A stretch of DNA of 61,741 nucleotides, filler included, from Hausera hauseri (GCA_046269625.1; 11 parts of 11 records of this genome joined end to end with filler, not necessarily neighbours in it), one strand, 5' to 3'. Shown: positions 16,697-61,741, numbered from the whole stretch's first letter. Numbers and translations are program-made. Notes: generated from the sequence alone by a model not told the origin.

Positions 16697-16743
16697 ATAA
16701 AATTTGTTTAAAGTTCTGATTTTTGAAATATAATGCATTGTAG

Positions 16744-18234: not shown

Positions 18235-18400
18235 TCCTAGTGTTGGATTTGGAATATTATTTAATTTATGTACTATTGTAACATCTGCAATGTGGTTGTC
18301 TGGTAAATCTTCAGAACTATATGCAATGTCATGTTTTAGTGCTGCAGCATCTACTCGATTTATTGGTTTTGACCATTCATGTGTGTAAGGTTCCACCTTA
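18235..18400 (-). mobile_element. Parvovirus-type PLA2 (PLA2X) domain fragment, Polinton/adintovirus-like
   Basis: KPINRVDAAALKHDIAY..HIAD matches the viral PLA2 DxxAxxHDxxY motif; truncated by contig start. Confidence 0.75.
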
Positions 18401-20237
18401 CAAAAAAATACTATTAACAAAATCAAAAAAATAACAATCGACAATATCACCGATTCATCCTAAGTAAAAAATACTAAAATTAAAATTTCTTAACATTTTC
18501 ATGAATTCATCTATACAAAAATAAAGATAGCAGAATGAAAAGAGGAGAATCACAAGTGCCGAAGTGACCAACACTTTGTGATAAACAACAAAAATTTGTT
18601 TAAATCCACAGTTTAAAGCTAGTTGTTTTATAATCAAAAAGAATTATTTAAAAAATCTGAAAAAGAATTTTTCGAAAAAACAATTCCAGAAAGTTCCGAA
18701 AAACTATCATTAAACATTCTCAAAGTATCGTCTGTTCGCCACTACAAGAACAAAACCACGACCAAACCTGGTGAACCCATAATCAGGGAACAGGAGAAGT
18801 CAAGTGTGCCTGTTCCGCCTCCCGCCAAGCCCAAAATTGGTGAACCAATCACCCGAAACGAAGGCACGGCAATCACGTCGAAACCGGAAGCCAATTGCGA
18901 AGTCAGATTCAACAAAGTCATCAATTTGACATCGGGGTATTGGATCCCTACGTGATATTAACCAGTACTGGCGAGAATACAGGACCCAGGCGACAGTTAA
19001 GTCTTAACCCTCAAGCCAGACCAGCCATGCTTGACCCGGTGAGTCACCGTCTCCCGCGGAAGACGACGCTGTAACCCCGACAAGCGAGCCCAGTACCGAT
19101 CCTATTCGGACTTTCTGATGGTACGGGAGCTGTTGCAACGGAGCCGTTTCGTACGGCTCTTTGCCAGGTTGGGACGAGATGATTCCTACTCCTTACCTGT
19201 GGGAACCCTCCACCGGTTTTACGACGACGGAGAAAATTGACGACTTTTCGATTCATCGGTTTTCCTGCCGGACTTCCTAAGACTTATGGCGGCCGCCGAC
19301 TGCCTTTTCGAATCGCTGACTCCCTCAGAGAGCCAGTTGATTCCGGAACGCCGAATCCCTGAAAAGCGGCGGACAAGGACTTCGAGCTCTGATGAAACAC
19401 CAATTCCGTGTCGCAGACGCCGCTTAGATCCGACACGACGGAAAGCCGCACGGATGGATTCAAATTCGGACGATACTCCGACTTGTCCACGCCGAAGTCC
19501 AAGGATTAATCCGGCCCTGTCCTTACCCGAATACTCCTACGCCTCGGCGGACGATTCACGAGAATTTAATAAAAATTACTCTCGTTATTTTTTCGTCTTC
19601 CATATTTTTGTTTCAGTCGTTTTATTCGACTGTATTTACATGTTTTCCCGTTTTTTGATTGAAAGTTCCATCCACAAGGAGAAGAACTCTAAAATGGTGG
19701 CAGGGGTTACCGCATTAACGCCTTATAACACAAACGCAGCCTTTGAAATAAATCCGTCTCAAACACTGCACAAAACCTTTGATAGCATTCAGGCTCAAAT
19801 TCACACAAGTGCCGTAGAAACTAATCCGGTCACATTCGTGCATCACCAAACATGATCACGTAATACCCACAAACAGTTGTATCACCAAAATCAACTGCAA
19901 TCAGAAATTTACAACGCGTGACAGTGAACAAGTGTTAAAATATTCTAGCACTAACACATGCGTCAACACCGTCAAATCGGAATACAAACCCGATTATACG
20001 AACCGCTACAAAATAGCACACACAAGCAAAAAGTCGCTATTTAACGATTCACCCAATCGTCAGTCGACTGAACTCGCCAAACGAAGTACAACTCATTGTA
20101 CAAAATTGGCGTCATACGAAAGCTCATCGCTTTCCATCCACTCTAGATATGTCGCGAATGCTGGGAGTTTTAAACCAACAATATCCCGAGCATACATTGC
20201 GCAATCAATACAATTTTCATAGACAATAACATTATAC

Positions 20238-23200: not shown

Positions 23201-23357
23201 CAAATAACAACGCAAAGCGTTGTGTCTGTATTGCTATAAACATGGATTTCTCGATTTAGAGTACCTAAAAACATTATAAAAGATCAAGGTACCCAATTCG
23301 AATCAGCCATGTTTAACCAATTAACCAAATCGCTTGGTTCAAAGCATATACATACAT
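20238..23357 (+). mobile_element. Decayed Ty3/Gypsy LTR retrotransposon gag-pol
   Basis: PBS-like TGGGGGCTC (tRNA-Pro) at 20238 after AACA; gag PTFIG..WF..FE; protease FLIDNGA; RT SPWTSPLHMV..YRPCGNYR..TPFGLFEY; RNase H LTTDAS; integrase HMDIVGPL and DQGTQFES; many stops and frameshifts. Confidence 0.93.
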
Positions 23358-23457
23358 NNNNNNNNNNNNNNNNNNNNNNNNNNNNNNNNNNNNNNNNNNN
23401 NTTAATTAATTAANNNNNNNNNNNNNNNNNNNNNNNNNNNNNNNNNNNNNNNNNNNN

Positions 23458-23850
23458 TGTAAAGCATCCAAGAGTCCATAAATATCCGAAACTGGAAACG
23501 TGAACTTCTCCGTAATTGTGTTCAACTTCCTAAAATCCATGCACATGCGAATAAACCCGTCGTTTTAGGTATCACCACCAGTGGTGTATTCCAAGGGCTT
23601 TGTCATGTCCTGATAATTCCGCTGTTCAGAAATCGGTCGATCAATCTTTCAACCTTTGGCTCCAAGTGAATCGGAAGTCTCCTGGGCGGCTGCGCAGTTG
23701 GGTCGCCTGTAGTTTCAATGTAATGTTGCACGATCTTTGTATGGCCTATGTCAAAAGCTGAAACCACAAAAATATCACCGTACTTTTGAATCATCCGCTT
23801 GAGAGATAGGTGTGCTGCAAAAACTTCCAAGGCCAACTTTTCGTGAAATT
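23458..23850 (-). mobile_element. Gypsy RT N-terminal fragment of a different family
   Basis: QHYIETTGDPTAQPPRRLP..SGIIRT*QSPWNTPLVV..MCMDFRKLN. Confidence 0.85.
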
Positions 23851-24289
23851 AGGTTGAACGCAGATACACGGTCAAACGAACCCATAACAGTGCAATCCAA
23901 AATCTTGATGGAACAGAATATCTTTATTTTCAAAAATTTAAAAAATCATTAGATCCATATTATGCTACCATGAAGCATATTTCTATGTACACATGTCTTT
24001 ATATTTATATATAAAAATTACGCAGATTAACACACAATGAATATTGAATTTTAAAGCGATCATACCAAAACAAACACAAAATCAAAAAAAAGATAACAAA
24101 CGCCAAACGATTGTCGAAATAAGTGTTACACATAATCAGAGAGAATGAAATACAATGTAGATACAGTTAATGAGATCAACGTAGACTAATTAAAATAAAA
24201 TGAGCTAAAATGACTAAAGGAGAGAGATGAGATTTATTAACAAATGTTCCGGCTAGCGTCTAATGTTTTGAATGTGCGAGACGATGCTA

Positions 24290-27200
24290 TTGGTAGGTCT
24301 ATTCACTGGCAGTTATAGTTTCATTCCAATTGTATTTTCGCATGAGATTTGATATGATAGTATTCTTCTGTCTGCTAAGAGGCAACATTGAAAAAGTGTG
24401 AAATGATGCAATTTTCTGATTGACAAAAATATAATTTGCTAGGTCACTCTGCCTGGATGGAATAAGAATAACTGAAGTCTGGAACGTCAAAATATGATGG
24501 ATCTGTTAATGGTGATTATATGTTGGAGATTTGGTTCATAATTGTGAATAATGACTTTTTTGACATGTAGGATCGTATGTCTAATACATAGACGTTGGTT
24601 CCAGCACTCTGACGAGAAACCGAGCTGCGCCAGCGACCATGGCACCACATCACCTCCCCTGTGTAGAAAAGAGACTGTAAAAGTGAAATGGAATGATGAA
24701 GATAATATGGATGAGAGCAATTGAGTCGTGAAAAGGAGCAATGTTTGGTGCCTATTCCGTTTTGGTATGAGTTAAGCGTTGTGTGCCATCAATAAACTTT
24801 TCTCTGCTGTACATATTGAATGTCACTTTACGTACCTTACTCGATGGATTAGCGCTGGGCTGTTGTGTGATATTTTGTGATGGGAGTGATAGTAAAGATG
24901 AGTCAAGCAAGAAAGGAGAGGAATGTTGTGAGCATGATGACGGACAGTGAAGTGAGACGGATGGAGGAAATGATGATGATTGAGTGTAGTCGAGTAGTGA
25001 TTGCTGCATCGACGCGAAATCGTTTAAAGTTAGTAGAATTACTAGCTGAGTTTGAATTAAGTGTAGAATTGTTATCTGGAATGTCGTCGATGAAAAAGGC
25101 AGGCTTCAGATTCGAAATGTGGGACTCTGTACGGTTTATCTTGGCATAAGATTGTTGCTGTGTGAAATGAAAGATTCAGCAGTTTGTACGGGCCAACATA
25201 CTGAGGTTTAAAACCAGAAGAAGATTGACCTTTTAACCACACAAACTTGGCGGAGTATAGATCCTTCGGAATGTAGGATTTGTTGTTATTAAAGAGGCGG
25301 CAGAATGAATATGAGCTGACCTCGACGAAATGAGATTGCGCTGCACGAATGTTCTTATCTATGGGGTTGTCGTCGAGATCAGAAAGTTCAAATAAAGCCC
25401 GAATTGGAGTCCCGAAAAATGCTTCGGCTGGAGCAGAACCGGTAGTGGTCAAAGGTGTGTTGCGCCAACCTAGCAGAACAAAAGGTAGAATGGACGTACA
25501 ATTACGATTAGTATCAGCCACGATTTTTAGAGAAATTTTCATTGTGCGATGAAACCTTTCGAGAAGGCCCTTTGCTTGGGAATGATATGAAGTAGTATGA
25601 AAATGGGACATCCACAAAAGTTTGACAAGTGATTTGAAAAGTTTAGACTCAAATTATGGACCTTAATCCGTTATTATGTACCGTGGGGAACCAAAGCGAT
25701 TGATCCAGATTTTAATAAAAGCGTCGGCTACTGAATCAATGTTTGATGAACGAAGAGGAACGGCTTCAGGCCAACGAGAAGCACGATCCATCATGGTAAG
25801 TATGTGCTGATATCCGTTGTCGGCATATAAAGGACCAACTAAATCAAGGTGAACTGTATGAAAGCGTGATGTACAGGGAAAGTGGTAAAGTGGTGATTTA
25901 AGATGTTTGTTAATCTTGTATTTTTGACAGGCAATGTATTCTTTGACCCAGTCTTGTACATCTTTGCGCATTGACGGCCATACTACATGACGTTGAAGCA
26001 GGCGAAAAGTAGCTTTGGAACCTGGATGATGGAGTGAATGCGCATGAACAAAAGCTGGCTTTTGTAAAGGTGGTGCTAGGATAACCTTTTTATTGCCTGT
26101 ATTAGATGTATCAAAAGCTATTCCATCAATGATCTCGTAGGATCTGAAAGAACTAAGGAGATCAACGGATGGTTGATTGGCCTTTAAGACTTCAGATGAG
26201 AAAATTGGCTCAACTGTAATGGATCTAACCGACCTCGATAGAAAGTAAGCTACCAAGTTATCCGTGCCTGAGATATATTCCAAAGTAAAACTGAACGTTG
26301 ATAGGTATGATATGTGTCTCTCTTGCCTTCCTGATAGCTCTTTTAACGACATGATGTGCGGCAGAGGCTTATGGTCAGTTTGAATTACGAATGGACGAGA
26401 GAGAAGTAAGTGTTTGAAATGTTTTACTGCCAGAACTATGGCAAGTAACTCGCGATCAAATGTGGAGTAACGGCTCTCAGGTTGTGTTAGTTTCCTAGAA
26501 TAGAATTCTAATGGCTCGTCGACACCATTAGAGATCTGGTGTAGTACAGCACCAATAGCTGTGGTAGAGGCATCGGTTGTAAGAATAAGATCTGCCTTGG
26601 GTTTTGGATAAGCCAGTATTTCAACTGTTTTAAGACCCTCACGTAAATGATCAAATTTGGTTGCCAAATGAGGAGTCCAGTGGATCAACTGTCTCTTTTT
26701 TCCTGAAGATAAATGTGCGAAAGGTGCCGTAAACTCAGAGCAATGAGGCACGTATTTGTGGATGAAATGGAGTGTGCCTAAAAAACTTCTCATGTCAGAG
26801 GTAGTTATTGGTAGAGTTATGTTCTTTAATTGTTGTAATCGATCCGGTTGTGGAGAGTGGCCGTTAGGAGTCATGACATGGCCTAGAAAATTAAAACGAT
26901 TTTGAAAGAAATGACACTTGGCGAAATTGACTTGCAAATTGCTATGATGTCATCTGTGAAAGATAACACGAAGGTGTTCCTGATGCTGTTTGACAGACGT
27001 AGAGGTAACTAGTATGTCATCAATATATGGATGAGCGAAATCTAGACCTGAGAGTACAGTATCAATGTGCCGTTGGAAAGTTTAAGAAGCACTACGTAAA
27101 CCAAATGGCATAAAGATATATTAGTAGAGGCCAAATGAAATAATGATAGCAGTTTTTGGAATATCATCATGTGAAACAGGAATTTGATGATATACTTTAT

Positions 27201-28272
27201 GCAAGTCAATTGTGGAGTACGTGTTAGTGTTGGTAAGGCTGTGCAGGATGTCATTTATAAGAGATAAAGAATACGCATCCATGACTGTTTGACTATTTAA
27301 CTGCCGATAATCACCGCATGGTCTGTATGTGCCATCTTTCTTCGTCACAACATGCAAAGGCGAAGCACATGGTGATTTGGATCGTCGATTTGAACTCTGA
27401 TTCAACAGCTTTTCGTCTGCGAAGTGAAAGTGGCCTTACCTTTTGTTTAATAGGTTTTTGGTGTTCGGTGACTATGTGGAGATATGTTGTAGAATGCGGC
27501 TTGAAATTGATCTCCTTCTTAAGAGTACGGGAACAAGAAGTTTTAATGTAGGATTTAAGGTCAGAACCCAACGATAAGAATGATGATGGCATATCATTAT
27601 AAGAGTCAGTTGCTGTAATTGATGTAGAATGACTAAATGCTTCATTAACGACATTTGGTTCAGCCGATTGTTTCAAGATTGCTCCCACTGGACGAGATTA
27701 AAAATACTGATAAATTGTTAAGTGTGTTGTTATCATCCGATGAACAGAATGTCAAATTGATATTTGAATGAACAGAGGAGGAAAAAGTGACCGACTGGTC
27801 GTTTGGTGAGCATTTGCTAGAATTTGCAACGAAATTTCTGCGCAGGATGCATTTATGCTGGCAGTCGACTAACAAATCGTATGTAGCTAGGAAATCGGAG
27901 CCTATTATTGGCGAAAATTCTCCTGGTAGGTTGGAGAATGTAAAGAACAGTTTTGTGGTACCTACAATGTTCAAAGGTTGACCACAGGCAGTGAAGAGTG
28001 GAGGAGAGAAAACTGTGTTAGATGTAGGAGCAAGAGACAAAGGAAGAAGTGAAAAAGCAGCTCCTGAATCAATAAGGAAATCTACGTGTGATGTGTCCCC
28101 AAATAATAGATCAGCTTTCAACAGGAAGACTGCAGAAGCGGTGTTGAAACGGCCAGTAGTTTGAACGATATTGCCTGTAACAGAATGTGCCGTGGCATCT
28201 GGTGGCATTATTGGTTTTTTGAGACTTGTTGGTATAAGGCGGAAGAATGGTGAGTACGCGGAGGCGAAGAAA
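24290..28272 (-). mobile_element. Decayed Ty3/Gypsy element: protease, RT, RNase H, integrase, PPT and 3' LTR
   Basis: FLIDSGA, YRPCGDYRQLN, YIDD about 27017-27028, LTTDAS, HLDLVGPL, ERFHRTMK. PPT AGGGGAGG (24653-24660) then TGTGGTG starting at 24649. Left LTR boundary uncertain. Confidence 0.93.
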
Positions 28273-30118: not shown

Positions 30119-30801
30119 CTACAAATCCCTGGGCAAATGGCACTGATCTTTGACAAACCACGTCCTGAGATCTGGATATGTCTTGTTCTTCTGATCTGTC
30201 CATAATTTCTTACAGACCTCACAGAATATGTTCTCACCAATAGATCGATACTTTGATTTCTCCATTAACATGGCCAGGTACTTTTGCTTGTCTTTAGAAA
30301 GATTCAATAAAAACGTCGCCAGATCTTCCGGAGTCTTGAAATCCGAAGCGTCAATAAAAGTATCGGGTGGGAAGAATCGTTTATAATCTGCACCTCCACG
30401 AACAACGGGTATCACGTCAACATTTTTAAAAATCTTGAAGAATTTTTCCGTGACGTAATCTTTACAGAGCGTGTTTTCAAAAGCCAGGTAGAAAAAATAT
30501 GATCTTGACAACATTGGCAAACACAAACTATCGTCTATAGCACGTTTGTTCAATCCTTTGGAGCAGTTATAAGTTCCACAGCTGCCGAAGACGTGGACGT
30601 CAAGTGACTTCTGCATACGTCTGACGTATTCATCTCTGCCACTGGACGTCCGGCAGTTACTAACGAACCAAGCAGCTGGAAATTTTTTGCTGTTGACTAT
30701 TTCGTGATAGTTCTTTTGAGGTAAGGGCTGTCTTGCTAATTTTCCATACATGTGTACAATGTCAGAGTCCAAACGGTAGGTCATTGTCCAATTGAACTGG
30801 C
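30119..30801 (-). CDS. Alpha-1,3-fucosyltransferase (GT10), last coding exon
   Basis: Acceptor ttctccag| at 30802-30803; FNWTMTYRLDSD, AWFVSNC, YFFYLAFENTLCKDYVTEKF (alpha-1,3-FucT motif), FIDASDF; open to stop. Confidence 0.93.
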
Positions 30802-31549
30802 CTGGAGAAAAAAATCTCGTAATTACTGGGAGTCGTTTTTTCCAATTCAAGTGTTAAAAAAGCTGTCAATTTAAATAAAACAGGGAGATATTGAAAATTA
30901 GAAGAAAGAGTAGAGTAAAAGGCGAAGGATGATTTGAGAAATAAAGAAAGAACAAAAAGAAGCAGAACACATACAGGAAATACAGGAATGTTTTATCAGT
31001 AATAAGATATATCCACACGATTTGAGGCGTATAATTTAATGTGGAGTTAGTGTCAACATGCTGTTCTTTTACCTACCTCACAGAACTAGGTCATGCTGTC
31101 GGCGTTACTTTCTCAGTTTGTCTAGCACCCAATTTTTAGGCTGTTTTGGCTATCTTCGTAATGGTCCCCAGATTTGATTAGGTTCTTTTTTTCTTTTTAA
31201 TTTTCTATCGTTATTTTCAGTGCTATCTTTAGTGTCCTCTTTTTTCATATTCCAACTGGTGCCCATCATAAAGCCATCTTCGAAATACGTTTTAGTTAAT
31301 TATATGTCGTGACTATTAATTCTACTGTATAATTGTTGCCATGTCATTTTGATGACATTTACTAAATACTTCCTGAATAGAAATGGCATGTGGTATGAAA
31401 TCGCACAGAATATGTCTCCCAATTTAACGAGAAAGTCCAGGATATATCGTTCTAGCCACTCTCCATCTTTCTGAATAGCAGAGTTGACAATGCACAATTT
31501 CGTTTTTAATCGTTGGCTTTGAAAATACTATTATCTAATTCATTATCAT

Positions 31550-42358: not shown

Positions 42359-45346
42359 TTATCTCAAACGACAATGTCCGTACGCCCAACTCTTATATCG
42401 CCCCACCCACTTTTGCTTGATATCGTTGCATGACAAAGCAACCTTTTCATTTGTGATGGTATACAGCTGGTGCTCAATCGATCCTATGGTCGTTTGAGAC
42501 ATAACGACCTTTCCTCCTTCTCCGTCTTCTTGCCCATCATAGACACGGCGATAATCATTGGGATTTATTTCCGTCTGTTTCAGCTGGATGTCTTTTGTCC
42601 ACAGTCCATTAAAAGACTTTAACACTTTTGGCGCAAAAATATCCATTGCCTGTATTGAACCTGGCCTTCACTTTCGTCCTTCAAGCAGCCGATTTTGTTT
42701 ATTATCGCGCTGCTTTACAGTGGATGGTCCGGTGGGTAGTTGGATGTGTCCAGTAGTCCATCCGACATCACTTGTCGGAGCAGCTGGTCTCGATTGATGT
42801 TCTTCAGCTCAAGGAAAAAGTTATCTGTGTCACCGGCAACGGTACTGATCTCACAGCCGCCGCCGCCGCCGCCGCCAAGCAATTGCCGGTAACGTGCCAA
42901 GTTGCGATACTGGAACTCGTACATTCGCAACTTGCTCAGGTCCAATACAACTTGTCCGATGTAGCTTGGCCGGTCAATTATGACTTCTTCTTTGTTTAGA
43001 AGCATGGTGATCAATCCATCGGCAATGTGCATTGACCGGCTGAACTCAGCCTTGCTGGTGTACGTAACCAGTCGTTTTTCGTTATTTCACAGGCGCATAT
43101 TGAGCCGCTTCTTCAGATTTTTTACTGTTTCCCCGTAAAGTGAATTTTTTTGAACTCGTAATAGTCCTTTTCGAACTTTGTACAAGCTGCAGCTCGTTTC
43201 TCCGAATTTCCATCTATGTACACCTTGAATATCGGCGCCTGGTTGAAGCGGATTGCACGATGCAGCTGTGAGACGCGTACACCGAGCTGCATGTAAAACG
43301 GCAACAGACGCCAATGGATCACGTAATTCGATTTGGGTTCATGTGTCATGAGCAGTTTCTTTAATTCTGAGCCGCCGGGTGGACATTGGCTGATTGGTGC
43401 CATGGGTAATTCGTCCAGAGCGTCATGCAGCTTATCCGGTACCATGAGATCAACTTCCATTAGGTAGTCGACTGAGCTGTTTTCTGTCATGTTTGCTGCT
43501 GCTGCTGCTGCTGCTGGCAGACAGTCGGTACATTTCCGGGTCTTGTCGCAGCTCAATGTCCCTATCCAGTGACATTAGTGCCGATGCCGAACTCATTCCC
43601 GGTATTGAGTAAAAGTTGAGCGATTCCAACGTATCTTCCTCCAACGCTTAGCCCCAAATGCCTATAACACATTGGATAATAGGTACACATCGAGCTTTAG
43701 ATACTGAAGCATGTAGTCCAACATGTTTCTACAACCGAGTTCTGTCCAATATTACTGTGCTCTTTGATATTATCTTCTGTGATACCTGTCCATTGCGGCG
43801 TTAATTCCTCTGTTGTCCGCAGTCGCTCATATGACATGGAAAAGTCATACGGGAATATACCTTTGCTGCGTGCAATATGTGTGGGGAACTGCGTTAATGT
43901 TATTAGCACATTCGGCAAGGCATTTACCAGCTTAGCCTGCGATTCATTGAGAAATTGCAATGAATCGAAGAAGCGTACCTGGAACCGGTTTATGCGTGCT
44001 GTTAGGGACAGGTACTTCTCCATCGTTGTTGGGATTATGGATAGCTCCCAGTGCGAAAATTCATTTATGGCCCATTTTAGCATATGGTGACAGTCATAAC
44101 CCCTGAAGTTATGAAATATCACCGACAAGAATGGCCGCATCCGTCTTGCCAAATTGCATGCGTTGCATGCTGCTCCCAAGTATTGATTACTGAAATAATC
44201 GTGATCCGGTACGAGCCGTAACAGTGCGTCAAACGGTAATATTTTGTGGCACAGGTAACATTCGTCTGTCGCAGCGAACATCAGCGGTTCATATTCATCT
44301 GTCCAAATCAATGGTTTAGTGGAATTATTGCGATACCATGGTTCTATTTCCATTTCCACTATAGTTTCTAAACGCGGCAGGAAATCACATACACAGTTCC
44401 AGCCGTGAAAAGCGCAATACTGCGGCTGACCGACCGCTTTTATTGGGACAACCAACATACCAACGGCAATTGGAATGTGTTTTTGATCATACTCGTTGTG
44501 CCGTGGTAGAATTGCCTTAATATCGGCATATACTACATATGCCGGACTGTCCGTTTTCGATCAGTCACTGAATTGGACCTCCTTTTTGAGTGGCATGACG
44601 TAATGGTTGTTCCCGTTGAATTCTGCTTGAACAGCGCCACATGTTTCTCCCATGTTGTTTTTGTCCTGAAACCATGCAGACATGTAGGCCACCATTTACA
44701 CTGTATACACTTTTGGACAAACTGATGGTGATCCATGTTCAACAGTCGGGCCAAATTGGTCACTGCCATGTAATGGAACTTTTCTTTTGTTCCAGCAGTA
44801 ACAAATATATTGGACGTCCACTTGCGTTTCGACTTCGATATATTATGTCCACATGGGGGTTCTTATATATATATCTTCGTTTTCCGGTATTTCTACGATT
44901 GTATTATACCGCAACACATTTACTGCCAGTGCTGGATTACACCGTTCAAAAACCGGAATGGTTTTTAATTTCATCGGCATCCAGCATTCATTGAAATCCA
45001 ATTCGGAAAAGTACTGCCGTTACTGATTTGGTCGATTTTCACTATGTCTGTACACTTGGTCATATTTTATTACCGCCAGAATACTGTAAATAAAACAGTA
45101 TTTGTCGTCAATATTTTTTATATTCACTACTGCATGTGTATGCTGCAGGGCTGTAGGTGACGGTATGAATGATCTCCCGGACAGGTAAATTATGTCACTC
45201 AACTTTGTTACGATAAAGCGGAGAGTGACTATTTTTATAATTGGCCAGTCACTATCCTTTTTCGTGTAGTTGGCGATATTCTCCTCGAGCTTTTCTCTTA
45301 CATCGGCAATAAAATTGTCGGAATACGGTTCGGCTCGATGTGACAT
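42359..45346 (-). pseudogene. Protein-primed type-B DNA polymerase, Polinton/adintovirus-like, decayed
   Basis: In order across shifted frames: AVVNIKN..CFIYSILA, DHDY..GAACNACNL, FHNFRGYD, FFDSLQF, KGIFPY, LMEVDL..LHD, KNSLYG (motif B), GDTDNFF (motif C), DTSNYPPDHPL, terminal AYGH. Confidence 0.92.
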
Positions 45347-46001
45347 GTACCACTGTTTCCTGCACCTTGCACATTTTCAAATTCTGCAAGTGCATAATAT
45401 TGCACTTTGCAGTAGTGGTGTTGATGTTGTTTAATTTTCTCCACACATTATGCGGAACCTGTCCCAATTGCGTTGTTGTTGTTGTCGCCGACATGTTCGC
45501 TTTTATGTCCACGTACGATATGTTTAGGTCGTACTTGACAGTAATTGGCTGTTCCTGCTCCTGCTGCTGATGCCCTGTATTGCTGCTTTGTAGGTATTCG
45601 TCAAGACTTGTTGATTCTTGACCTTTCCTGCTTGTTGAGGGAATACTGCTTTTGTTTTCTGCCTCCATTAATATTTTATTTTTCGACCTCTGAAACTGGT
45701 TCAAGTGGTCCTGGTGCATATTGTAAAATTGTTCATAGTTGATTTCATCATCAACTATAGAACAACCGGGACAAATATAGGCCCGTTTACTGTGCACCGT
45801 TGTGGCGCCATAGTATTGTTCCATTGCATTATGGCAATTATCAACGTTGTGCACTGTACTTGTAGAGTACCGTGGGTACATGGGACAATGCACTAGCATC
45901 ATCTTCTTCGACCGTGTTGTAAACGGTCCGAGATGATGCTTGTGCATTTTATAAAAGTCGACATGGGCATTGCGTTGAAATACTGCATGTTGTACACACA
46001 T
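45252..46001 (-). CDS. Cys/His-rich ORF upstream of PolB, probably its frameshifted N-terminal region
   Basis: Internal repeat (FYKMHKHHL / FYNMHQDHL), CPGC; overlaps the PolB frame. Confidence 0.4.
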   Translation of the reverse strand: MCVQHAVFQRNAHVDFYKMHKHHLGPFTTRSKKMMLVHCPMYPRYSTSTVHNVDNCHNAMEQYYGATTVHSKRAYICPGCSIVDDEINYEQFYNMHQDHLNQFQRSKNKILMEAENKSSIPSTSRKGQESTSLDEYLQSSNTGHQQQEQEQPITVKYDLNISYVDIKANMSATTTTTQLGQVPHNVWRKLNNINTTTAKCNIMHLQNLKMCKVQETVVHVTSSRTVFRQFYCRCKRKARGEYRQLHEKG

Positions 46002-47976: not shown

Positions 47977-49062
47977 TCTGATCGTGATGCAGCTATAATA
48001 TGAAATGCTCAACTACTGATGGGCTACGTGCTCATTCCATTTCCACAGCCAGCATACTTGAACAATGGGAAATTTTACCGATTGAAATTTTACAATCAAA
48101 TTTTCCCCATGTTCCCATGGTCAGACCGAATTGAAATTGTGTGCATTTGACTCATCGACATTCATTTGAAATTGGCACTAAACATTGCAAAATTCGTAAC
48201 TCGTGTCTCGTTTCTCGTAGAACATTTCCTGTTTTGCTTCTTTTGCTTTTAGCGCCGCCCGGTTACATTTTTGCCTCTCACTGCGCTACAAAATGTTTTT
48301 CCACTCTAAGAGCTCTCCCAATTTCCGTCGGTGACTTGTGCGACATGTGACATGTGCTGACGGCTTAGGGGCAAGTCTCCGACCAAAAAACATGAAATGC
48401 TCAGAATTGCGAGATAGATGGGGAAAACTTGGTACGAAGTCGATCTGAGAACTTCTGGGAAAGTGGGCTGGAGCCCCCACTTCTACCTACTTTTTAACAA
48501 CATGATTTTGACTTAAACTTTTAACAATGCGTTTTTTCGGTTCGTTTGTTCGTTCGGTGGCTATTTTCATCTGTATCCTTTCGTCTGATCGTGAGGCGGC
48601 TATAACATGAAATGCTGAACTACTGATGGGCTATGAGCTTAACCTATTTCCATCGCTGTTTGACTTGTGTAATGGTAAATTTCCCCTGTTTGAAATTTTC
48701 CCATCGATTTTTACCCATGTTCCCATGGTCTGATTGAATTGTGTCCATGTTCATTGGATTCGCCAACATGAATTTACCCTTTGTACATATGTTTTCAGTG
48801 CTAGCAGCACATTTCTGGTTACGCGTGGCGCATTTTCTGTTTTGCTTCTTCCTCTTCTAGCGCCTCTCCATTACATTTCTCAAAGCCGCACCGCTAAAAC
48901 CTTTTGCTCAGCTTGTCACTCGCTATCGATATTACTCGGTACAAAATCCATTGCTCGACCTCCTTTTCGGCCATTGGGGGGGGGGTCGTAGGAAAATTTT
49001 AGTGAAATTCTCGAAATAGCCAGTCAGATGGGGAAAACTAGTCGGCTGGCCAATCAGAAAAG
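47977..49062. repeat. Diverged tandem repeat, unit about 607 bp
   Basis: tctgatcgtga..gctataa..tgaaatgct.aactactgatgggcta at 47977 and 48584; ccatgttcccatggtc and agatggggaaaact also recur. Confidence 0.85.
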
Positions 49063-52000
49063 TGTGGTGGACTCCTCACTTTCCACTATTCCGGTGGCAT
49101 CAGGTTAATTATTATTCCTGTTTGCTCACGCCTTTCGTTAATTCGCACGTTATTTGCAATTATAAAACAATAGTTTTGTAAAGACCGTCTTACGGCAAGA
49201 GAAGTGCGACGAAAAACGAAATGAGGCAGCTACTGACGACATCGGATCAAAAACGCCGCACCCGGTTTTACCCGGCCAAACTGAGCCACGGGACAAAAAT
49301 TTATGTTGGCACCACATCACTCCTCCCCTCCCGTGGCAAAGTGAAGACTGTAAAAGGAATAACAATGAAAGACAAAATCCGCGAAAGAGAAAATTGTTTC
49401 TATCCTACTCGGTTTTTGTGTAAACCAGATGTTGTACTTTGTCAAAATTTTGTTCTCTACTGTACTTACTGAAGGTAGTTATACGCATTTTTCTTGCGTA
49501 TTTTGAGTTTGCTTGCAGAGGTGTAAGTTGAGGAAAAAAGATATTTGAATTTACCGTTGGAGTTGTTTTAGTTGTAGAAGGTAAAAGTTGCGGAGGAAAG
49601 TCAGCCGAGGGTGAAGAAGATAGAAAAGGTGGAGAGGTGTGAAGAATTGAGGATTGGAGAGAGATTGGGCATTTGAAAAGAATTGAGGAGAGATATGAAG
49701 TGGAGTTGAGTCAGAAAAGGACGTGTTTGAAGAAGGTTAAATGTGTGAATGAGACTAAGAATTTGGAAAAGGTTAAAGAGAAAAATCTAAAGGAGATTTG
49801 TCTTTACGTGAAGGTCGTGTGTGGTTAGTTAAATTGGATGAGGGTGAAGTGGTGGCAAAGGAATCAAGAAAAGTACCAGGAGAGTTGGTGTTGGTTTGTG
49901 TATCTTCGGGAGAATCATCAACGAAAAAGGCTTGTTTTAGGTTTGTGATGTGCATAGTTTGTTTTTTACCACTTTTAAGAATGGTAGCTGTATGAGAGGA
50001 TAAAGATAAAAGTTTGAATGGTCCCACGTATTGTGGTTGGAAACCACAAGGTGAATGATTGCGAAGCCAGACAAACTTAGCGGTATACAAATCATTTGGC
50101 ACATTTGATTTGTTATAATTTATTATTTTGCAAAATGAGTCTTTGTTTAATGCAACGAAGTGATTTTGCACATCTCAAATTACCTCATCTGTTGGTTTAT
50201 CGCCGAAATCAGTCAATTCAAAAACTTCCCAAATAGGTGTCCAAAACAATGCTTTAGCTGGTGCACAACCATCGTGGTGGAGGCTGTGTTTTGCCAACCA
50301 AGGAGGACAAATGGTATGAGAGCTGTCCAGTTGCTGTATGATTCAGCAAGGATTTGATTGAGGTCTTCATTATGCAGTGAAATCTTACTAGTAAGCCATT
50401 AGCTTGGGAATATTATGGAGAAGTGAGTATGCGCTTGATCCCCAAGCGATTGATTAAGGATTTTTAAAAATTGACTCAAACTGTGGAGCTTGGTCCGTGA
50501 TTATGAAGCGAGGTGAGCCAAATATGCTAATTTAAGTTTTGATGAAAACCTCAGCGATTGTGTCCGTGTTAGTGGAGCGCAATGGAATGGCCTCTGGCCA
50601 TCGAGAAGCACAGTTCATTATGGTCAATATGAATTGATTGCCGTTATCTGGTCGAAGGGGGCCGACTAGGTAAATATGCACGAATTCAAAACGCAATGTA
50701 CAGGGGAAATGATAAAGGGGTGGCTTCAGATGTCTGTTAATTTTGAACTTCTGGCATGCCACCCACTCCATAATTTACGCCTGTACGTCTGATCTCCTTG
50801 ATGGCCATATAACGTTGCGTTGTAAGAGCTGAAAAGTTGCTTTAGCGCCCGGATGATGAAGATAATGCACGCTATGAAATGCAGTTCTCTGCAAAGACGG
50901 AGATAGTATAGGTGTGTGATTGCCGGGTTTAGAAGTGTCATAGGACACGCCGTCAATGACTTGGTGTGATTTAAAAGATTTAAACACATCCTGCATTGGC
51001 ACGTTTTGCTGAAGCACAGCTTGTGAAAAAATCGGCGTGACTTATATGATGTTAACTGATCTTGATAAAAAATCGGCAACTAGATTGTTAGTGCATGAAA
51101 TATGTACCATTTTGAAACTGAATGTGGATAAGTACGATATGTGACATTCCTGTCATGGTGAAGGGGCCTTCATATTCATAATGCTAAGCAGAGGTTTGTG
51201 GTCTGTTTGGATCGTAAAAGACCTGGCAAATAACAAATGCGATAAGTGTTTTAGAGCTAATGCTATAGCTAAGAGCCCTCTGTCGAAAGTTGAATAACGA
51301 CTTTCCCGTGTTGTAAGTTTCCGAGAATAAAATTCCAGAGGCTCGTTGACACCATTAGAAGTTTGATTCAGTATTGCGCCGACTGCTGTGGTAGAGGTGT
51401 CTGTGGTTAATATGATCTCTGTGCCAGGCTTGGGGTATGCTATAATTTCAACGGTTTTTAAACCATCACGTCAATGGTCGAATTGGTATACAAATTCAGG
51501 CGTCCAGTGAATTAACTGTTTCTTTTTCCAGATGATTGAAATGCAAAGGATGCGGTTAATTCGGAGCAATGTGGCACGTATTTATAAACAAAGTGGAGTG
51601 TACCAAGAAAAGAGAGCATTTCAGTCGTTGTACGTGGCAGCTGAATATTGTTAAGCTGAGTTATACGATCTAGTTGAGAAGATTGACCAGATTTGCTGAT
51701 AACATGACCAAGAAAGTTGATTCTCTGTTGGGAAAAGGAGCATTTTGCAAAGTTTACTTCGAGATTACTTTGGTGAAGGCGCGGAAAGTCTATGCGTAAA
51801 TGCTCAAAATGTTGTTTGGGAGACGACGAAACGATGAGGATATCGTCTATATATGGGAACGCAAAGTCTAAACCGTCGAGCATTGTATGTATGTGCCTTT
51901 GAAATGTTTGTGAGGAACTACAAAATCCGAATGGCATGAAAACATTTGAAAAAGCCGAAAGGTGTTTTTACAGCCGTTTTCGGTATGACCGCCGGCGAGA

Positions 52001-52073
52001 CAGGAATCTGATGGTAGGCTTTATGAAGATCGATGGATAAAAATATGGTGTTGCCATTGAGTCTGTGTAGGAT
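49063..52073 (-). mobile_element. Decayed Ty3/Gypsy element related to the contig-4 element, with 254-bp 3' LTR (49063-49316)
   Basis: MPFG..YIDD, RNase H, integrase. LTR termini TGTGGTG...CACCACA; PPT GGGAGGGGAGGA at 49321-49332. Confidence 0.92.
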
Positions 52074-52173: not shown

Positions 52174-52829
52174 ATTTTTCAAGTAGCCTTACACCACATA
52201 AACGTTATGACTCTTTTACGACAACCATCTTCAATATTACAGCCACGTTGCCAACCTGAGCAAATCACTAGATTATTGCCTGAATTGCCAATGCCTGCAC
52301 TTTCAATAATACCTATACCAACCATTTTTTACAGTTCACCACTACCAATATCCTTACAAGAAGATTGGTTTCCTGTCCTCAATAAATGTCCAATTGACTT
52401 TATATCCGATCTAGCCCCCCCGACTTATGGGCAACATTACAATCGCTCTACTATGATCAACTTCCTACCTATGAATGCACTATATGCCTTACAGAAAGAA
52501 TAACAGTAGTTCAGTTTCAGTGCAACCATAAATTATGTGCAACATGTTTCAACAAACTTCGTTCTCAGACTGTCAAATCAATTTACCCGGAAGAAGCTCT
52601 CCAAATGACCTTCCAAAATGGCATTTCATGCCCATACTGCCGACAACCATCAGTCTACTACCACTTCTTCTATACCTAATACAACCGTACACAACGACTA
52701 TGCCATTGGATAAATCCAGTAAACGATGCGACACTGACAATCAGACCTAGAAATCTCAGCTTTATAAATGTCAGTACGCAGAGTGATCCGGAGGACCGAA
52801 TCCTTTTACAAAAGGGGGAGAAATGTTAG
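52174..52829 (+). pseudogene. End of the last internal ORF of retroelement copy 2, containing a C3HC4 RING and running through the PPT
   Basis: From 52476 CTIC..CNHKLCATC..CPYC; one TAA at 52677; same frame continues to STQSDPEDRILL, identical to the peptide at the start of contig 2. Confidence 0.75.
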
Positions 52830-55481
52830 GATAAATTACTATGGTATCGATATGGTATATGATCTGATTATCATTATTATGATATTGACAATAACCATTT
52901 AATTATGGTATCGATATGGTATATAATCTGACTATCATTATTATGATATTGACAATAACTATTTAATAATCGACTATGAAATGAACTATAACTGTTATAT
53001 CGTCGACTATGATTTTGATCGTTGCTTGAACTGTTTGAAACAATTGTCTGTTGTGATTATTGTAACTGAATAAATCATTTTCTTTCATCTTGGTTTCTTT
53101 GTTGAACCCCTTCTGATGGGTATCTTTAAATCACTGTCCATTGTACAGTAATTGTGAGCCAGATAATTAAAGCGGCAATATAAAAATTCAATTATAATTT
53201 CGAAGTGAATTTCAAAATAAGTAGACAGGAACAAACAACAGTAATATCAATATTTAAGGGTAGTTGTAAAGTGGATTCAATTTATAGAATAAATAAAATC
53301 GTTGCAGAAATAAACATAGAGCAATTTGCAAAATTACAAAATCGTTGCAGAATAGATTTTAAATAAACAAAAAAAGCAATTTACGAATGTTTATAAGCAC
53401 AAACATAAATCAATTTGCAAAAATGAGATTCGGTGGCATGTGATTTCAACAAATAGATTTTAATTAACAAAATTGAGGAGAAACTGGTATAAATACCAGT
53501 CAAAAAACAGAACAACAACAACACCAAAATTTTCTTATTGCTAGCATATAGTTGTTGACCGGTACATCGTGAAGAAGCCAAGTAGTAAGTTTACTACTGT
53601 TTAATGTTCATTTTGTATTAAAAGAAGGTAAATAAAATATATAAAGTATCTGCAGTACATTGAATCATATATTGTGAACGTGGAAGAATTTGGAAACAAA
53701 GTAACCCAAGATTTACAAATTATCAAAACACACATCGTTCATTTGAGGAAATTGAAATTTAACGATTGGATATCTTTCATTTGAAACGAACATTCTTACA
53801 TTATTCGTTATAATTACAAATAGTAATCGCTATATGGCAGAACAAAATACCCATGCTAATCCGATAAACCAACCGGAATCATCAGATTAATATTGTTTAA
53901 ATCGAGTATATACATTGTTATTATGCAATTTATCATAATTAAATAAAAGGGGTTACTGAGATGTATGCAAATGTATTTAATTGTTTTTATGAATAAAAAT
54001 TTTCCATAAATAAATGAATTCTCTTATAATTATTAAATTACCGTATAACGATTAATTTAGAATCAACGAGAAAAATACAAATTGTTCTTAATAGTGTGAG
54101 CTACCAAATCAAGTCTAGCTGAATGCGATAAACGAATCCATCGACGGATAAAAATGGAGCTATTGATGATGGAAACATAAATTCGAAGTTACCTGAGAAC
54201 GTGGAAAAATGTCAATTGCCGTAACCAACGTAACACCGCCCTTCGAGTGAAGATATTGTTATTTACCTGCGACTGATTGAAATTCGGTTTTACGAATTAA
54301 TATCGAAGATTAAATTGTCTATTCTTAACTAGCGCCTATAAAATATTTCATTGAATTCATCTTGATAATTGATGTGGTATATGATCCGACGGATCCATAA
54401 GATAATAATGTTGAATAAGAAAGAGAACAGGCGACAAATTAAAGATATTTATTTCATTACATAGTAACATAATAGTAGCAGTACTATAATCATATCAGAG
54501 ATGAAAAGTGTTACTTGTGGGCATAACGTGAGTTCAAGCGTGTTTAAGGGAAGTTACGCTCGATGTGTGTAGACATTTGATGGGTACAGTTCCAATATAT
54601 GTTTATGGGATTATTATTGCTTATAATGACGATTGTTAAATTAAGGAAAGAAACTTCTGATCTTATATTTTGGAATAGTCAAAGAAGATTGATGATACAG
54701 CAGGAAACTGGCAATACTCTTGAATAGTAAGGAACTTCACACGAGGAAACGTAAAAATGAGTATCCTTCAACCTAGCCTATATATATTTTATTATGGTAA
54801 TTGTAAAAAATCACCACCATTGATATGTTTAAAGGGAGAGAGTTGTAAAAAGGGGATATACCCAGATCAATGAATTGAATCATTGGTGTAACTTGGAAGG
54901 AGTCGTATATTGCAAAAGATAGATACATAGTCGAAGATACTTATAAATATAAACTACAAAAATATGACAATAAGGAGGGTATGAATTATCCTTATTAAGA
55001 TTGTCCCTTATAAATATATTGACCTATACTAAAGTTTGAAATCGAGTAGAATTCTTAAGACTTTAACTCACGTTTACATTTTCACGTCATAGACATATAT
55101 ACTTCCACTTAGTGTTTTATATTGGTATTAATATTTCACTAATCAATTACTTACTTGTTTTGTTTGTATATTTAATATGGATATCTTAAGTTATAAGTAT
55201 CTTCGTCCTCCGTCAACCCATCAAAACATTCACGTTTGTTTTAACCATACCTAGTTTATGAATCTTGAACAGATAACTAATAAAGGGAGTTTTATTGTGG
55301 TAACATCATTATTGAGATCAACGAATTAGTAAATATCAGATGGAAAGAGGCATAAATATACTACAACCCATGAAATCCCGGAAGAAAACCCGAGTCGCCC
55401 CTAGTTATATTTTCGAGGCTATCTTTTATATGTTGGCACATATTAAAGGTCAACTATTTATCTTTGACCCCTGTGCGAACA
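52824..55481 (+). mobile_element. Putative giant LTR (2658 bp), copy 2
   Basis: PPT AAAAGGGGGAGAAA 52810-52823, TGTT start, AACA end 7 nt before the PBS; approximately 63-bp tandem duplication 52841-52967; TATAAATA 53488. Confidence 0.72.
53834..53885 (+). CDS. Leader exon counterpart, 17 codons + 1 nt (MAEQNTHANPINQPESS), donor degenerate
   Basis: Same length, MA start and ES-containing Ser-ending tail as 12852-12903; preceded by acceptor aaatag (53823); followed by ATTAAT instead of GT. Confidence 0.55.
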
Positions 55482-55488
55482 TATAGAC

Positions 55489-55503
55489 TGGTGCCCCGAG
55501 TGA
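55489..55503 (+). other. Primer-binding site (tRNA-Met), copy 2
   Basis: TGGTGCCCCGAGTGA, identical to 15097-15111. Confidence 0.8.
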
Positions 55504-55543
55504 ATAATTTTAGGAGAAATTTTACTTGAATTTTGAAATTTAG

Positions 55544-55833
55544 ACACAAGATATTCACCAGTACAATGCGAGATTTGCTTCGGACCACTAAGCCGGCACT
55601 ACGCACTATTGCGGTGCACACACATTATGTGTGTCAATTGTGCGGACCGTTGGCTAATGAGGAGCCAGACGTGTCCCTTCTGTCGAAAGAAGACAAGTTC
55701 ACATCAGTGTCGAGGGACTACCGTAGTGGTGATCCCAGACGAAGAGGAAAAGGAAGAAGGAATCGAAGTGGAGGGAGATCCAAATGACTTGTATGTATTT
55801 GGACCCAAAGGGCTGGTTTATATGCCCCTATGA
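55544..55833 (+). CDS. Cassette A homolog: RING terminal exon
   Basis: atttag| phase 1; CEIC..YALLRCTHIMCVNCAD..SQTCPFCR..DLYVFGPKGLVYMPL*; AATAAA 55843. Confidence 0.9.
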
Positions 55834-56033
55834 TAGTCGATTAATAAATGTTGTGAGCTGACTTGGAATATTAATGTTAGAATAGAGAAATAATTGAAAA
55901 AAAAGAAAAACTAATTGAATAACGCAAGTAAAAGAAAAAGAATAATTGCTTGAATATCAAATTAGTAAATGGTAACAAGAACATAAAAAATTAAACAGAA
56001 TTGGATAATTGGATTTAATTATGTTGCTTTTAG

Positions 56034-56254
56034 GATGTGTTATATGCTGGAAATTCCCTGATAAGGAAAAATTCTGCCCATTGTGTAAATTCATCGAAGA
56101 AATGGAACAGAAAGATCATCAGTTTCAATGTAGTGGTTGTGGACAGGAAGTCAAGCTGGAAGTAGCTACAATGAATGAGGAGTACTACTTATTATGCCCC
56201 ATGTGCACATTGAAGGAGGACGACTTAAATGAAATTAATAAATTAATTGATTGA
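56034..56254 (+). CDS. Cassette B homolog: four-CxxC protein terminal exon
   Basis: ttttag| phase 1; GCVIC..CPLCKFIE..CSGC..LLCPMC; AATAAA 56237 within the last codons. Confidence 0.85.
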
Positions 56255-56315
56255 TTTTAATATCTAACAAAAAATGATCATTGATGTTGGTAAGGTTTAG
56301 TTTTATAAATTGTAG

Positions 56316-56722
56316 ATACCTGTCCCATCTGTCTTGAGGGAATAACAAACGATATAACAACATTACCATGTGGACACGTATATTGCAAACTTTGTATCGA
56401 CACTTGGTTAAACGAACAAAGTAATTGTCCTTGCTGTCGACGAACCTGCACATTTTGTTGGGTGTGCCTTAAATTGGTGGCGGATAGTCTGGTTATTCTA
56501 CCATGTCGTCATGTGTTTTGTCAATCGTGCATACTGGAGTATTTAGGATTTTGTCAACTGTGCCCTTACTGTCTCGAATCAGTAGACTTTTATACTGCGG
56601 AGGGAACGACCACATATCTGAATATCGATGGTCGACCATCTGTAGTGTTGATGGTCGATGAAAACGACGGTAGTTGTTCTGAGCAGTGGAGAAATCCACA
56701 ACTAAATATATTTTTAGATTAA
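56316..56722 (+). CDS. Cassette C homolog: double RING terminal exon
   Basis: ttgtag| phase 1; CPICLE..LPCGHVYCKLCIDTW..CPCCRR then a second RING; in-frame TAA at 56306 and no ATG before either RING; AATAAA 56728. Confidence 0.9.
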
Positions 56723-56767
56723 TTGTTAATAAAATTAATTACAAGTCGTTTATTTTGACTTATTAAG

Positions 56768-57078
56768 GACTTCCCCTCGGGATGAATAGAAGGAACATGT
56801 TGGATTACGGATTTTCAACATTTTGTTACACTACAACAGCAGATAACAGTTATTCCATATATGATCCAAAAGGAACCTTTACTTACTTGGGAAAAGAGTG
56901 CGCCATTTGTTTGAGCGAATGCTCAATGGATCCGATAGAATTAACTATATGCAAACATCAATTCTGCCGACAATGCATTAAAGGGTGGTTTGCAGTCGAG
57001 ACTTCATGTCCAAAATGTCGCACTAACAATACATTATTTAGATATAAAAATGCTTATTATACTGTAAAGAATTTATAA
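56768..57078 (+). CDS. Cassette D homolog: RING terminal exon
   Basis: attaag| phase 1; YSIYDPKG..GKECAICL..CKHQFCRQCIK.WF..CPKCR..YYTVKNL*; AATAAA overlaps stop. Confidence 0.9.
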
Positions 57079-57198
57079 ATAAATGTTTATGTAAATTTNN
57101 NNNNNNNNNNNNNNNNNNNNNNNNNNNNNNNNNNNNNNNNNNTTAATTAATTAANNNNNNNNNNNNNNNNNNNNNNNNNNNNNNNNNNNNNNNNNNNN

Positions 57199-58294: not shown

Positions 58295-58449
58295 TCTTCG
58301 AAAAGATTTTTGAAATAATGAAAAATATAACCATGTCAACGCGCACTGTCTTGCACCGACCAAACAGATTTGTCCAATTTAAATGATCCAATCAGATTTG
58401 CCCAATTTGAATTTGACAAGTCAGCTAGAAACGTACCTTTCATTTTTAC

Positions 58450-58880
58450 AAATATTCTGAGCAACACCAACTACAGAGGCTTCACTACAGTTCCCTTGGA
58501 TGAATTCATATTCGGATGTAGATCTAAACAGTGTGTTTTACAATACCCAGAATATACGATTATATTATTCCTCAGTGGAAAATGGCGAATAATGGGATGT
58601 AAGAAACCCATTGATCCATGCCGTTTGCCCTACAATATATCAATTGTAGGAATACAATCAATTACAGTGATATGTAATTTTGGCGAGCCAATAGATCTAA
58701 ACACATTGGCTCAGAATAATCCAAGTCTGTATGAACCAGAATTATTTCTTGCCCTTAGATTGACTTGCTATAATCCTCTATGTGTAAATGTGTTTCATAC
58801 GGGTAAATTGTTATTACCGGTTTGAAGGTTTTGAATTATAGTGATTTTGTTAGTTGTGTTTTAGGTAATATATTATTATC
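58450..58880 (+). pseudogene. TATA-binding-protein-like gene, 1-nt frameshift near 58809
   Basis: Two TBP half-repeats: TIILFLSGKWRIMG and IDLNTLA..YEPELFLAL..NPLCVNVFHTGK/(shift)VITG; start codon not identified. Confidence 0.8.
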
Positions 58881-60519: not shown

Positions 60520-61741
60520 CTACTCTGATGTTTGCGGAATAATACTTAATTTCCAACTTCCGAATTTACCTAATGCGTGTTTCAAGATATGATGCAGGTC
60601 ATATCCACGCAAATTGTGAAACATGACTGGTAAATTATACTTAACCTGCCTAGCCAAGTTACACTTATTATATTCCGAGCCCAAGAATTTACCTGTAGTG
60701 CTCTGTTCGTGGCAAAGGTAACATGCTGCGGCATTTTTAAATGGAAGCCATTCAAATGATGTTAACGGGATCATTGGCTTTTTGTCATTTTCATACCATG
60801 AGAAAACTACGGTTTTAACAATTCCTGTAAACAGGCCAGAAAGTCGACTATAGAATTTTCACCAATACGTTACCTATATTCAATACCTGTTGGTGAAACT
60901 GACAAGAGACTAGCTGCAGCAGGCAAATGAATATGTTTGATTTTATCATTAGGACACAGAACAGATTCAAGGTCAGCATATACGAGGAAAGGGAAACTTA
61001 TAGACTTGGCCCAGTCCTTAAACTCACAAAACTTATTTTCCGGCATTTTGTATAAGGTTGTGCATTTGGCTGAAGAATTGCACATTGGCAAATACTTAGC
61101 GTAATCAGTGTCAAGCCTAAAGCCATGCAAACATTTTCCACACCAATGTTTCTGTCCATATTTAATAACCGCTTAAGATTAGGGACAGCAACATTGTGAA
61201 ACTTGCCATTATTTTCTAAAATCAACAAGTTTACTACAGCATCATTCGGATTTTTGCTGCGATATAAAATATCAACGAATGGATTTTTCACTATATCCTC
61301 ACAAAAATCCACGTCTTCCTCCTCGTGAAACAAAAAAACATCAATTGAAAGTTGTGGATTTTGTCTTTCAAATTTACGTATTTTGCATATTTTCATTGGC
61401 ATACCATATAAAGAATATGTCAGCTCGCCTAAGTAAGGAGTGTAATTGCCAACCCTATATCTGTGACTAATAAAGAGGTGATACTTGGTCACTGCAAGAA
61501 TGGAGTATAAGAAACACAAAGTGTCCTCATTTTGTACATTAATAACGGCCTTTTCATTTTTTAAAGCTTCAGGTGTTGGAATATAGGACTTACCAGACAA
61601 GTAGGGTAGCGGGCTAGTTTTGACTATATGAAAACAGTATTTCAATATCTTAACCACCTTCCACCCACTACCCATTTCAGCAAAATTCTCAATTTTCTCC
61701 TGTAAACTATCAGCTACAGTTTGTGGAAAAGACTGATCATA
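60520..61741 (-). pseudogene. Protein-primed PolB N-terminal/exonuclease region, Polinton/adintovirus-like, decayed
   Basis: GSGW, SYIPTP..AVINVQNED..CFLYSILA, FERQNP, VYADLES (Exo I), CNL, FHNLRGYDLH (Exo II); same family as 42359-45346. Confidence 0.9.

Follow-up and report, generated by a model that had tools for sequence, protein, structure and literature searches.

A putative LTR retroelement of Hausera hauseri carrying RING and IAP-like cassettes that may be expressed as alternative last exons

In errantiviruses, the env gene is expressed from a spliced message whose start codon lies in the 5' exon, and errantivirus env and the accessory genes of complex retroviruses are located downstream of gag-pol and use a common polyadenylation, poly(A), site in the 3' long terminal repeat (LTR). 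The Drosophila genes lola and mod(mdg4), as well as the adenovirus major late unit, combine a common 5' part with alternative 3' exons that each have their own poly(A) site. The planarian giant gypsy-like elements Burro/GYPSM1 exceed 30 kb, are high-copy and carry RING and BIR domains with links to ubiquitination and to apoptosis; in the available parts of that source, most extra domains are placed inside a polyprotein of ~4,900-5,100 aa, with an accessory open reading frame (ORF) upstream of gag (PMC6431247). The RING and BIR region of Burro1 reportedly guards stem cells against apoptosis (as cited in the available part of PMC13465017). In bdelloid rotifers, the Juno, Vesta and TelKA elements carry non-env accessory genes as ORF3, described in the accessible sections as typically expressed from spliced messages (PMC5408684). 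Here we describe an element found in two copies in a 61,741-nt stretch of Hausera hauseri DNA (GCA_046269625.1), referred to as the window, which consists of 11 contigs joined by N spacers. Copy 2 is contig 10 (52174-57098, 4.9 kb) and copy 1 is contig 2 (11922-18134, 6.2 kb), both truncated and with one LTR each. Positions are counted over the whole window, and the cassettes are lettered A-E by their order after the primer-binding site (PBS).

We propose that this element is an LTR retroelement in which an array of E3-ligase and IAP cassettes is expressed from a single leader encoded in the LTR, each cassette serving as an alternative last exon, and we regard this reading as probable. The original prediction placed a polypurine tract (PPT)-LTR-PBS-A-B-C-D repeat on contig 10, and the same order was read directly in both contigs. 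As in LTR retroelements, a tRNA-complementary PBS is found just past the LTR, and a PPT lies directly before an LTR bounded by TG...CA. The features that carry the argument are the following.

52810-52823, +, PPT adjoining the TG of the LTR, read from the sequence and the same in copy 1
52824-55481, +, LTR of copy 2, TGTT…AACA, 2,658 nt, longest stop-free stretch at most 69 codons
11983-15089, +, LTR of copy 1, TGTT…AACA, 3,107 nt
53488-53495 (copy 1: 12725), +, candidate TATA box from a motif scan, picked for its position upstream of the leader
53585-53627 (copy 1: 12804-12847, 44 nt), +, candidate GT..AG micro-intron of 43 nt in the 5' leader
53834-53885 (copy 1: 12852-12903), +, coding part of the candidate leader exon, an ATG exon of 17 codons plus one base, 52 nt
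55489-55503, +, PBS of tRNA-Met(CAU) type, 7 nt after AACA in both copies
55544-55833, +, cassette A, C3HC4 RING and acidic tail, phase-1 acceptor, no ATG upstream of the RING, AATAAA at 55843
56034-56254, +, cassette B, four CxxC pairs, phase-1 acceptor, AATAAA at 56237
56316-56722, +, cassette C, two tandem RINGs, phase-1 acceptor, no ATG before the first RING, AATAAA at 56728
56768-57078, +, cassette D, RING, phase-1 acceptor, AATAAA at 57078
15177, 15542, 15893, 16401 and 16744, +, acceptors of copy 1, all phase 1
16744-17966, +, cassette E of copy 1, IAP-like, phase-1 acceptor, with a BIR, a degenerate BIR-like middle and a C-terminal RING, AATAAA at 17988
18042-18134, +, possible sixth cassette of copy 1, ending at the contig end after 30 codons

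The predicted phase of the copy 2 acceptors (55544, 56034, 56316 and 56768) was confirmed at all four sites, and the five acceptors of copy 1 agree with them. Counting from the upstream stop, the first AG has phase 1 in 9/9 cassettes, compared with 85/222, 34/119, 15/44 and 91/198 in four null sets (29-46%). The poly(A) layout claimed to be common to the copies was found as well, with AATAAA at each cassette stop in both; the signal lies -17 to +22 nt from the stop in all nine cassettes, against 14% and 18% in the null. As the copies are homologous, the independent count is five cassettes, and for these the phase result has a chance value of ~0.02 (0.46^5) and the poly(A) result one of ~0.0002 (0.175^5). 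A tenth candidate, the possible cassette at 18042, fails the first-AG test, its first AG being in phase 2 and its second in phase 1, and its frame gave no Pfam match. From each poly(A) signal to the next acceptor the distance is 40-191 nt. Five of the eight A-D frames lack an in-frame ATG upstream of the first Cys, and in none of the A-D pairs do both copies have one.

A start codon could be supplied by the LTR. Both LTRs, otherwise unalignable, hold an ATG exon of equal 52-nt length, and the 17 codons plus one base of this leader fit the phase-1 acceptors of the cassettes. The ungapped leader match between the copies (24/52) is the best among 49 LTR ATGs, and the leader of copy 1 ends at a canonical donor. 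Between the TATA box and the leader ATG there are three ATGs in copy 1 and one in copy 2, all located within the 44-nt and 43-nt GT..AG segments. Related contigs were taken from two sequencing runs, X1 and X2, and in a 785-nt X1 contig, ~98% alike to copy 2, the leader is followed by a canonical donor and precisely the 43-nt segment is missing. Such a gap is the trace that reverse transcription of a spliced RNA would be expected to leave, but a plain microhomology deletion is also allowed. To the expression system of the original prediction, the two LTRs add a leader exon whose phase 1 fits the acceptors, the system itself being deduced from DNA only.

C3HC4 is the RING type of A, of D and of each half of C. 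Cassette E resembles the IAP family in combining a BIR with a C-terminal IAP-type RING; Pfam BIR scored 27.5 bits (cut-off 22.9) along with RING, and the best PDB match was cIAP1 (E 6e-18). The middle of E is conserved with altered Cys/His spacing, and its matches to Atlas BIR clusters, at most 0.84, serve as a lead only. Cassette B gave no Pfam match (a weak IBR in copy 1), its best PDB hit had an E of 0.03, and its Atlas matches at 0.91 are unnamed clusters with low recognition; based on its CxxC pairs, B is predicted to bind zinc. Judging from the domain families, the RING products would be E3 ubiquitin ligases and E an apoptosis inhibitor. A single multi-RING gene with A-D as internal exons was ruled out, each cassette having its own stop and AATAAA.

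Protein identity between the copies is 68, 44, 52 and 53% for A, B, C and D, respectively, and the peptides quoted as conserved in the original prediction, including CKHQFCR and WRNPQ, are present. The cassettes are under purifying selection, as had been suggested: for 394 codon pairs, the maximum-likelihood dN/dS is ~0.15. Across these aligned codons the proportion of synonymous differences (pS) is 0.85 and saturated, the proportion of nonsynonymous differences (pN) is 0.27 and dN is 0.34, with a bootstrap range for pN/pS of 0.27-0.38; since dS is saturated (undefined by NG86), dN/dS is approximate, though far from 1. Identity at codon positions 1, 2 and 3 is 0.61-0.77, 0.71-0.81 and 0.33-0.46, and 37/45 Cys columns are common to both copies. 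The statement that spacers and most of the LTR do not align holds in that both score no better than shuffles (LTR 38 vs a shuffle maximum of 38; three spacers 25, 19 and 25 vs maxima of 30, 34 and 26), but two stretches outside them do align: the block before the PPT (88 vs a maximum of 19) and the stretch from PBS to first acceptor (37 vs a maximum of 28). Intact frames had been claimed throughout; A-D are open to their stops, whereas a RING gene before the PPT is in two frames and the copy 2 leader is without a canonical donor. The contrast drawn with decayed Gypsy pol genes proved uninformative, as these are on other contigs and have neither the PBS nor the pre-PPT motif in common with the element.

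That the system is family-wide is supported by run X1, in which 3,619 contigs are related to copy 2 and 4,800 to copy 1, mostly at 80-99% identity. Outside this run, cassette A and the IAP cassette have additional relatives at 40-54% identity. In X2 there are 300 and 899 related contigs, respectively, and the X2 word share is small (0.08). These counts indicate a multi-copy element and concern number, not dispersal in the genome. Summed X1 contig depths, which are not copy numbers, are 4,699-38,694 before the LTR of copy 2, 9-23 over most of its LTR and 170-556 over A-D, and 2,788-24,283 over E of copy 1. Related contigs diverge right after the TGTT of the LTR (loose ends at 52828 and 52832). 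This depth profile fits many subfamilies with common ends and cassettes and differing LTRs. In copy 1, the LTR head (11983-12337, ~350 nt) has an X1 depth of at least 5,250, compared with mostly 23-90 in the rest of the LTR, pointing to LTR heads that subfamilies have in common or exchange.

In protein libraries, cassette E has three close clusters of relatives among nine matches (45-54% identity), and cassette A has three (P0012-P0014; 40-43% identity; 13 sequences read among the 150 profile matches listed). The close relatives of both are unnamed ENA metagenome proteins. Judging from the kind of element and from the closest named IAP matches, the host is probably an invertebrate animal. Exact-motif scans gave no match in viral contigs, JGI metagenomes or prokaryote genomes, IAP-profile scans confirmed 0/114, 0/222 and 0/57 candidate stretches, and a profile scan with cassette A confirmed 0/25. 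Word-index searches returned nothing for A, and none of five candidates was a longer form of the pre-PPT RING. A second A-profile scan gave 9/145, which were set aside as generic RINGs, matching over the RING only at 33-39% and having no PBS.

In the mechanism that we propose, transcription would start at the TATA box ~0.7 kb into the LTR, and the micro-intron holding all upstream ATGs would be removed. The phase-1 donor of the leader would then be joined to one acceptor per transcript, the cassettes lying 1.7-3.8 kb downstream, and the AATAAA beside the chosen cassette would end the mRNA, so that each product would consist of the leader peptide and one domain. The products may favor the survival of host cells, or eliminate host proteins that act in restriction or silencing, and such host-directed roles would explain the purifying selection. 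A full-length RNA would require read-through of all cassette poly(A) signals. In general, acceptor use can be coupled to the next poly(A) site, and an unused donor can suppress poly(A) sites; either mechanism could allow part of the RNA to be full-length. As for the PPT-LTR-PBS order, it most likely comes from a contig assembled through two LTRs or from a circle with a single LTR; a one-LTR circle or circular permutation is suggested for a rotifer element scaffold in the accessible part of PMC5408684. The unassembled middle of the element probably holds gag-pol.

A bolder extension, which we put forward tentatively as quite possible, is that the LTR acts as a universal first exon and the interior as a plug-in rack, where any captured or duplicated domain equipped with a poly(A) signal and an acceptor in phase 1 would be expressed without a promoter or start codon of its own. 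The element would then direct at least six E3-ligase/IAP modules against the host, and might be helper-dependent without gag-pol, or have gag-pol as an extra spliced cassette.

Several observations weigh against expression of the cassettes from the LTR leader. Only two copies have DNA context and their acceptors are not independent; phase alone gives p ~0.02, and a stricter acceptor pattern (9/9 vs 5-6% in the null) was defined after inspection of the data. The leader match is modest, with the next best ATG at 21/52, the TATA box was chosen among six matches in the LTR, and the 43-nt skip in the X1 contig has four letters of microhomology. There are in-frame ATGs near the starts of B2, C1, D2 (numerals give the copy) and E, and in two of three library IAP relatives the called protein has a Met close to where E has its own; cassette E may therefore be translatable alone. 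With no canonical donor after its leader and a broken RING gene before its PPT, copy 2 may be silent.

Among the other explanations, the one that survives best keeps the same splicing layout and supposes a non-autonomous element, with an interior made up only of accessory cassettes, the pre-PPT RING gene included, and a helper supplying Gag and Pol; we consider it rather unlikely. It draws on the gag slot behind the PBS being taken by cassettes, on both open ends lying in accessory-type genes, and on the finding of neither gag nor pol on the 6.2 kb and 4.9 kb of the two truncated contigs. The truncation itself speaks against reading much into this, and Burro-like elements, in the portion of PMC6431247 at hand, also have an accessory ORF, which lies upstream of a large polyprotein comprising gag, env and pol. 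Furthermore, the summed depth climbs toward both open ends, which fits a shared core without proving it.

A second explanation, which appears quite improbable, is an operon-like polycistron that is cut at the poly(A) signals and whose pieces are trans-spliced to a leader, be it a spliced leader of the host or the leader of the element acting in trans. The gaps of 40-191 nt on one strand are within the 300-bp range of flatworm operons given in the available part of PMC12582326, but the flatworm leaders described there end in AUG directly at the donor and would need phase-0 acceptors, whereas those found here are phase 1 in 9/9. A leader without an AUG would in turn leave five of the eight A-D frames with no start before the first Cys. 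The variant with the element's own leader in trans uses the same leader and is indistinguishable from cis-splicing on DNA.

The cassettes might alternatively be separate small genes with their own ATGs or non-AUG starts, the acceptor pattern being a by-product of AT-rich spacers, and we disfavor this strongly. The ATGs of B2, C1, D2 and E and the N-terminal Met assigned by the caller to library relatives are in its favor, as is phase 1 being the commonest class in one null set (46%). Against it, none of A-D has an ATG common to both copies, promoters would hardly fit into the spacers of 45-200 nt, and the 52-nt leader and the micro-intron would have to be coincidences. Finally, the cassettes could be a cluster of host RING/IAP genes, or have been captured by chance next to an LTR, and be maintained by selection at the level of the host. 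This would agree with paired LTRs, a target-site duplication and pol not being seen on the two contigs and with the frequency of IAP and RING families among host genes, but it is very remote given the PBS and PPT, which mark the LTR boundaries exactly in both of the strongly diverged copies, the intron-free cassettes, the thousands of related contigs, and close A and E relatives that are all unnamed metagenome proteins rather than named host genes.

Additional features were found at the ends of the element and within the LTR.

52174-52679, +, end of a further accessory gene with a C3HC4 RING, just upstream of the PPT (Pfam RING on 52398-52676; three-frame translation)
52779-52805 (copy 1: 11939-11965), +, 27-nt block identical in both copies, found by alignment
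52840-52967, +, 64-bp tandem repeat, two units, in the U3-like part of the copy 2 LTR, found by TRF
11943-16701, +, copy 1 in the order block-PPT-LTR-leader-PBS-A-B-C-D, from the sequence and scripts

The pre-PPT RING gene of copy 2 is split into two frames (52174-52500 and 52398-52676). Its RING carries a long insert, and this is the site of the top summed X1 depth on contig 10. The 27-nt block contains a 6-nt palindrome and is identical although the synonymous sites of the copies are saturated; it is a probable cis signal for replication or packaging. Folding of the pre-PPT block and PBS regions was no better than that of shuffles (z 1.26 and 0.65 for the 27-nt block). Tandem repeats occur within the first 0.7 kb of each LTR, and an AATAAA lies downstream of the copy 2 repeat at 53069 (copy 1: 12174). 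The PBS of copy 2 is identical over 15 nt to that of copy 1 at 15097. Its first 12 nt match Met_CAU 3' ends at 11/12 positions, and the exact 12-mer is absent from the tRNA-end table as available in PMC13524379 supplementary file 2. Neither gag nor pol was found on the truncated contigs, and no second LTR or target-site duplication was seen, each contig having a single LTR. A short LTR of ~300 nt was ruled out, there being no PBS-like site at that position, and linkage to the Gypsy pol contigs of the window was ruled out because neither the PBS nor the pre-PPT motif is common to them.

Elsewhere in the window the following were observed, and an Rfam scan of the window gave a single match, attributed to chance and located away from the RING-array element.

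18235-28272 and 48000-52073, three decayed Gypsy elements with pieces of reverse transcriptase, of RNase H and of integrase, two of them ~65% alike in DNA
2552-10336, repeated exon-like pieces that by eye resemble secreted phospholipase A2 genes of vertebrate type, a sign of more than one organism in the window
30122-30853, -, alpha-1,3-fucosyltransferase frame without introns (Pfam Glyco_transf_10, E 1e-48)
58331-58822, +, frame like the TATA-binding protein, TBP (Pfam TBP, E 7e-10)
60523-61741, -, decayed type-B-polymerase-like frames on the same contig as the TBP-like frame

The decayed polymerase frames resemble a type-B DNA polymerase region at 43125-45376, and together with the TBP-like frame they are possibly a Polinton/adintovirus-like remnant with a TATA-binding-protein-like gene.

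If the proposed splicing is correct, a retrotransposon carries a host-manipulating gene set like that of large viruses in a compact and expandable form, and the question arises of how an RNA that is reverse-transcribed whole passes at least five internal poly(A) signals. Similar arrays may be overlooked, because cassettes without start codons would be missed or mis-started by ordinary gene callers. RING and BIR cargo (Burro) and single spliced accessory genes (PMC5408684) are already known from the available portions of those reports. In the literature searched, which left most subscription papers and the primary Burro1 paper outside, no description turned up of consecutive accessory exons after a PBS that lack an ATG, are polyadenylated separately and share a leader encoded in the LTR.

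Like errantivirus env and the accessory genes of complex retroviruses, the cassettes would pair a 5' donor with a downstream acceptor to give subgenomic mRNAs, but here they have their own poly(A) signals and an upstream position. In working principle the array is like lola, mod(mdg4) and the adenovirus late unit; these are host genes or belong to a DNA virus, and do not depend, for reverse transcription, on an RNA spanning all poly(A) sites. It differs from LARD/TRIM-type elements, whose interior is by definition non-coding, in having an interior that codes under purifying selection. With the spliced-leader operons of flatworms, as far as described in the accessible text of PMC12582326, it has in common genes on one strand less than 300 bp apart, an acceptor before each downstream gene and a leader that can give the start codon, while the flatworm leader ends in AUG (phase 0) and the acceptors and LTR leader found here are phase 1. 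Juno, Vesta and TelKA also have captured accessory genes, and one scaffold is circularly permuted like these contigs; they have a single ORF3 after pol (exonuclease, esterase or env-like), with RING not mentioned in the available sections of PMC5408684, whereas here at least five cassettes lie between the PBS and the core. Burro/GYPSM1, finally, shares the RING and BIR cargo and the high copy number. In contrast to its extra domains as described in the accessible sources, with Burro1 compared through a citing paper, the cassettes of the present element are separate and mostly ATG-less, each with its own acceptor, stop and AATAAA, and no polyprotein was seen; as the cargo is not embedded in a polyprotein, the element is not filed as Burro. 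The proposed splicing would, if true, extend the Burro1 finding of an element-borne IAP aiding host cell survival, as relayed in the available part of PMC13465017, to a whole array of ubiquitin ligases.

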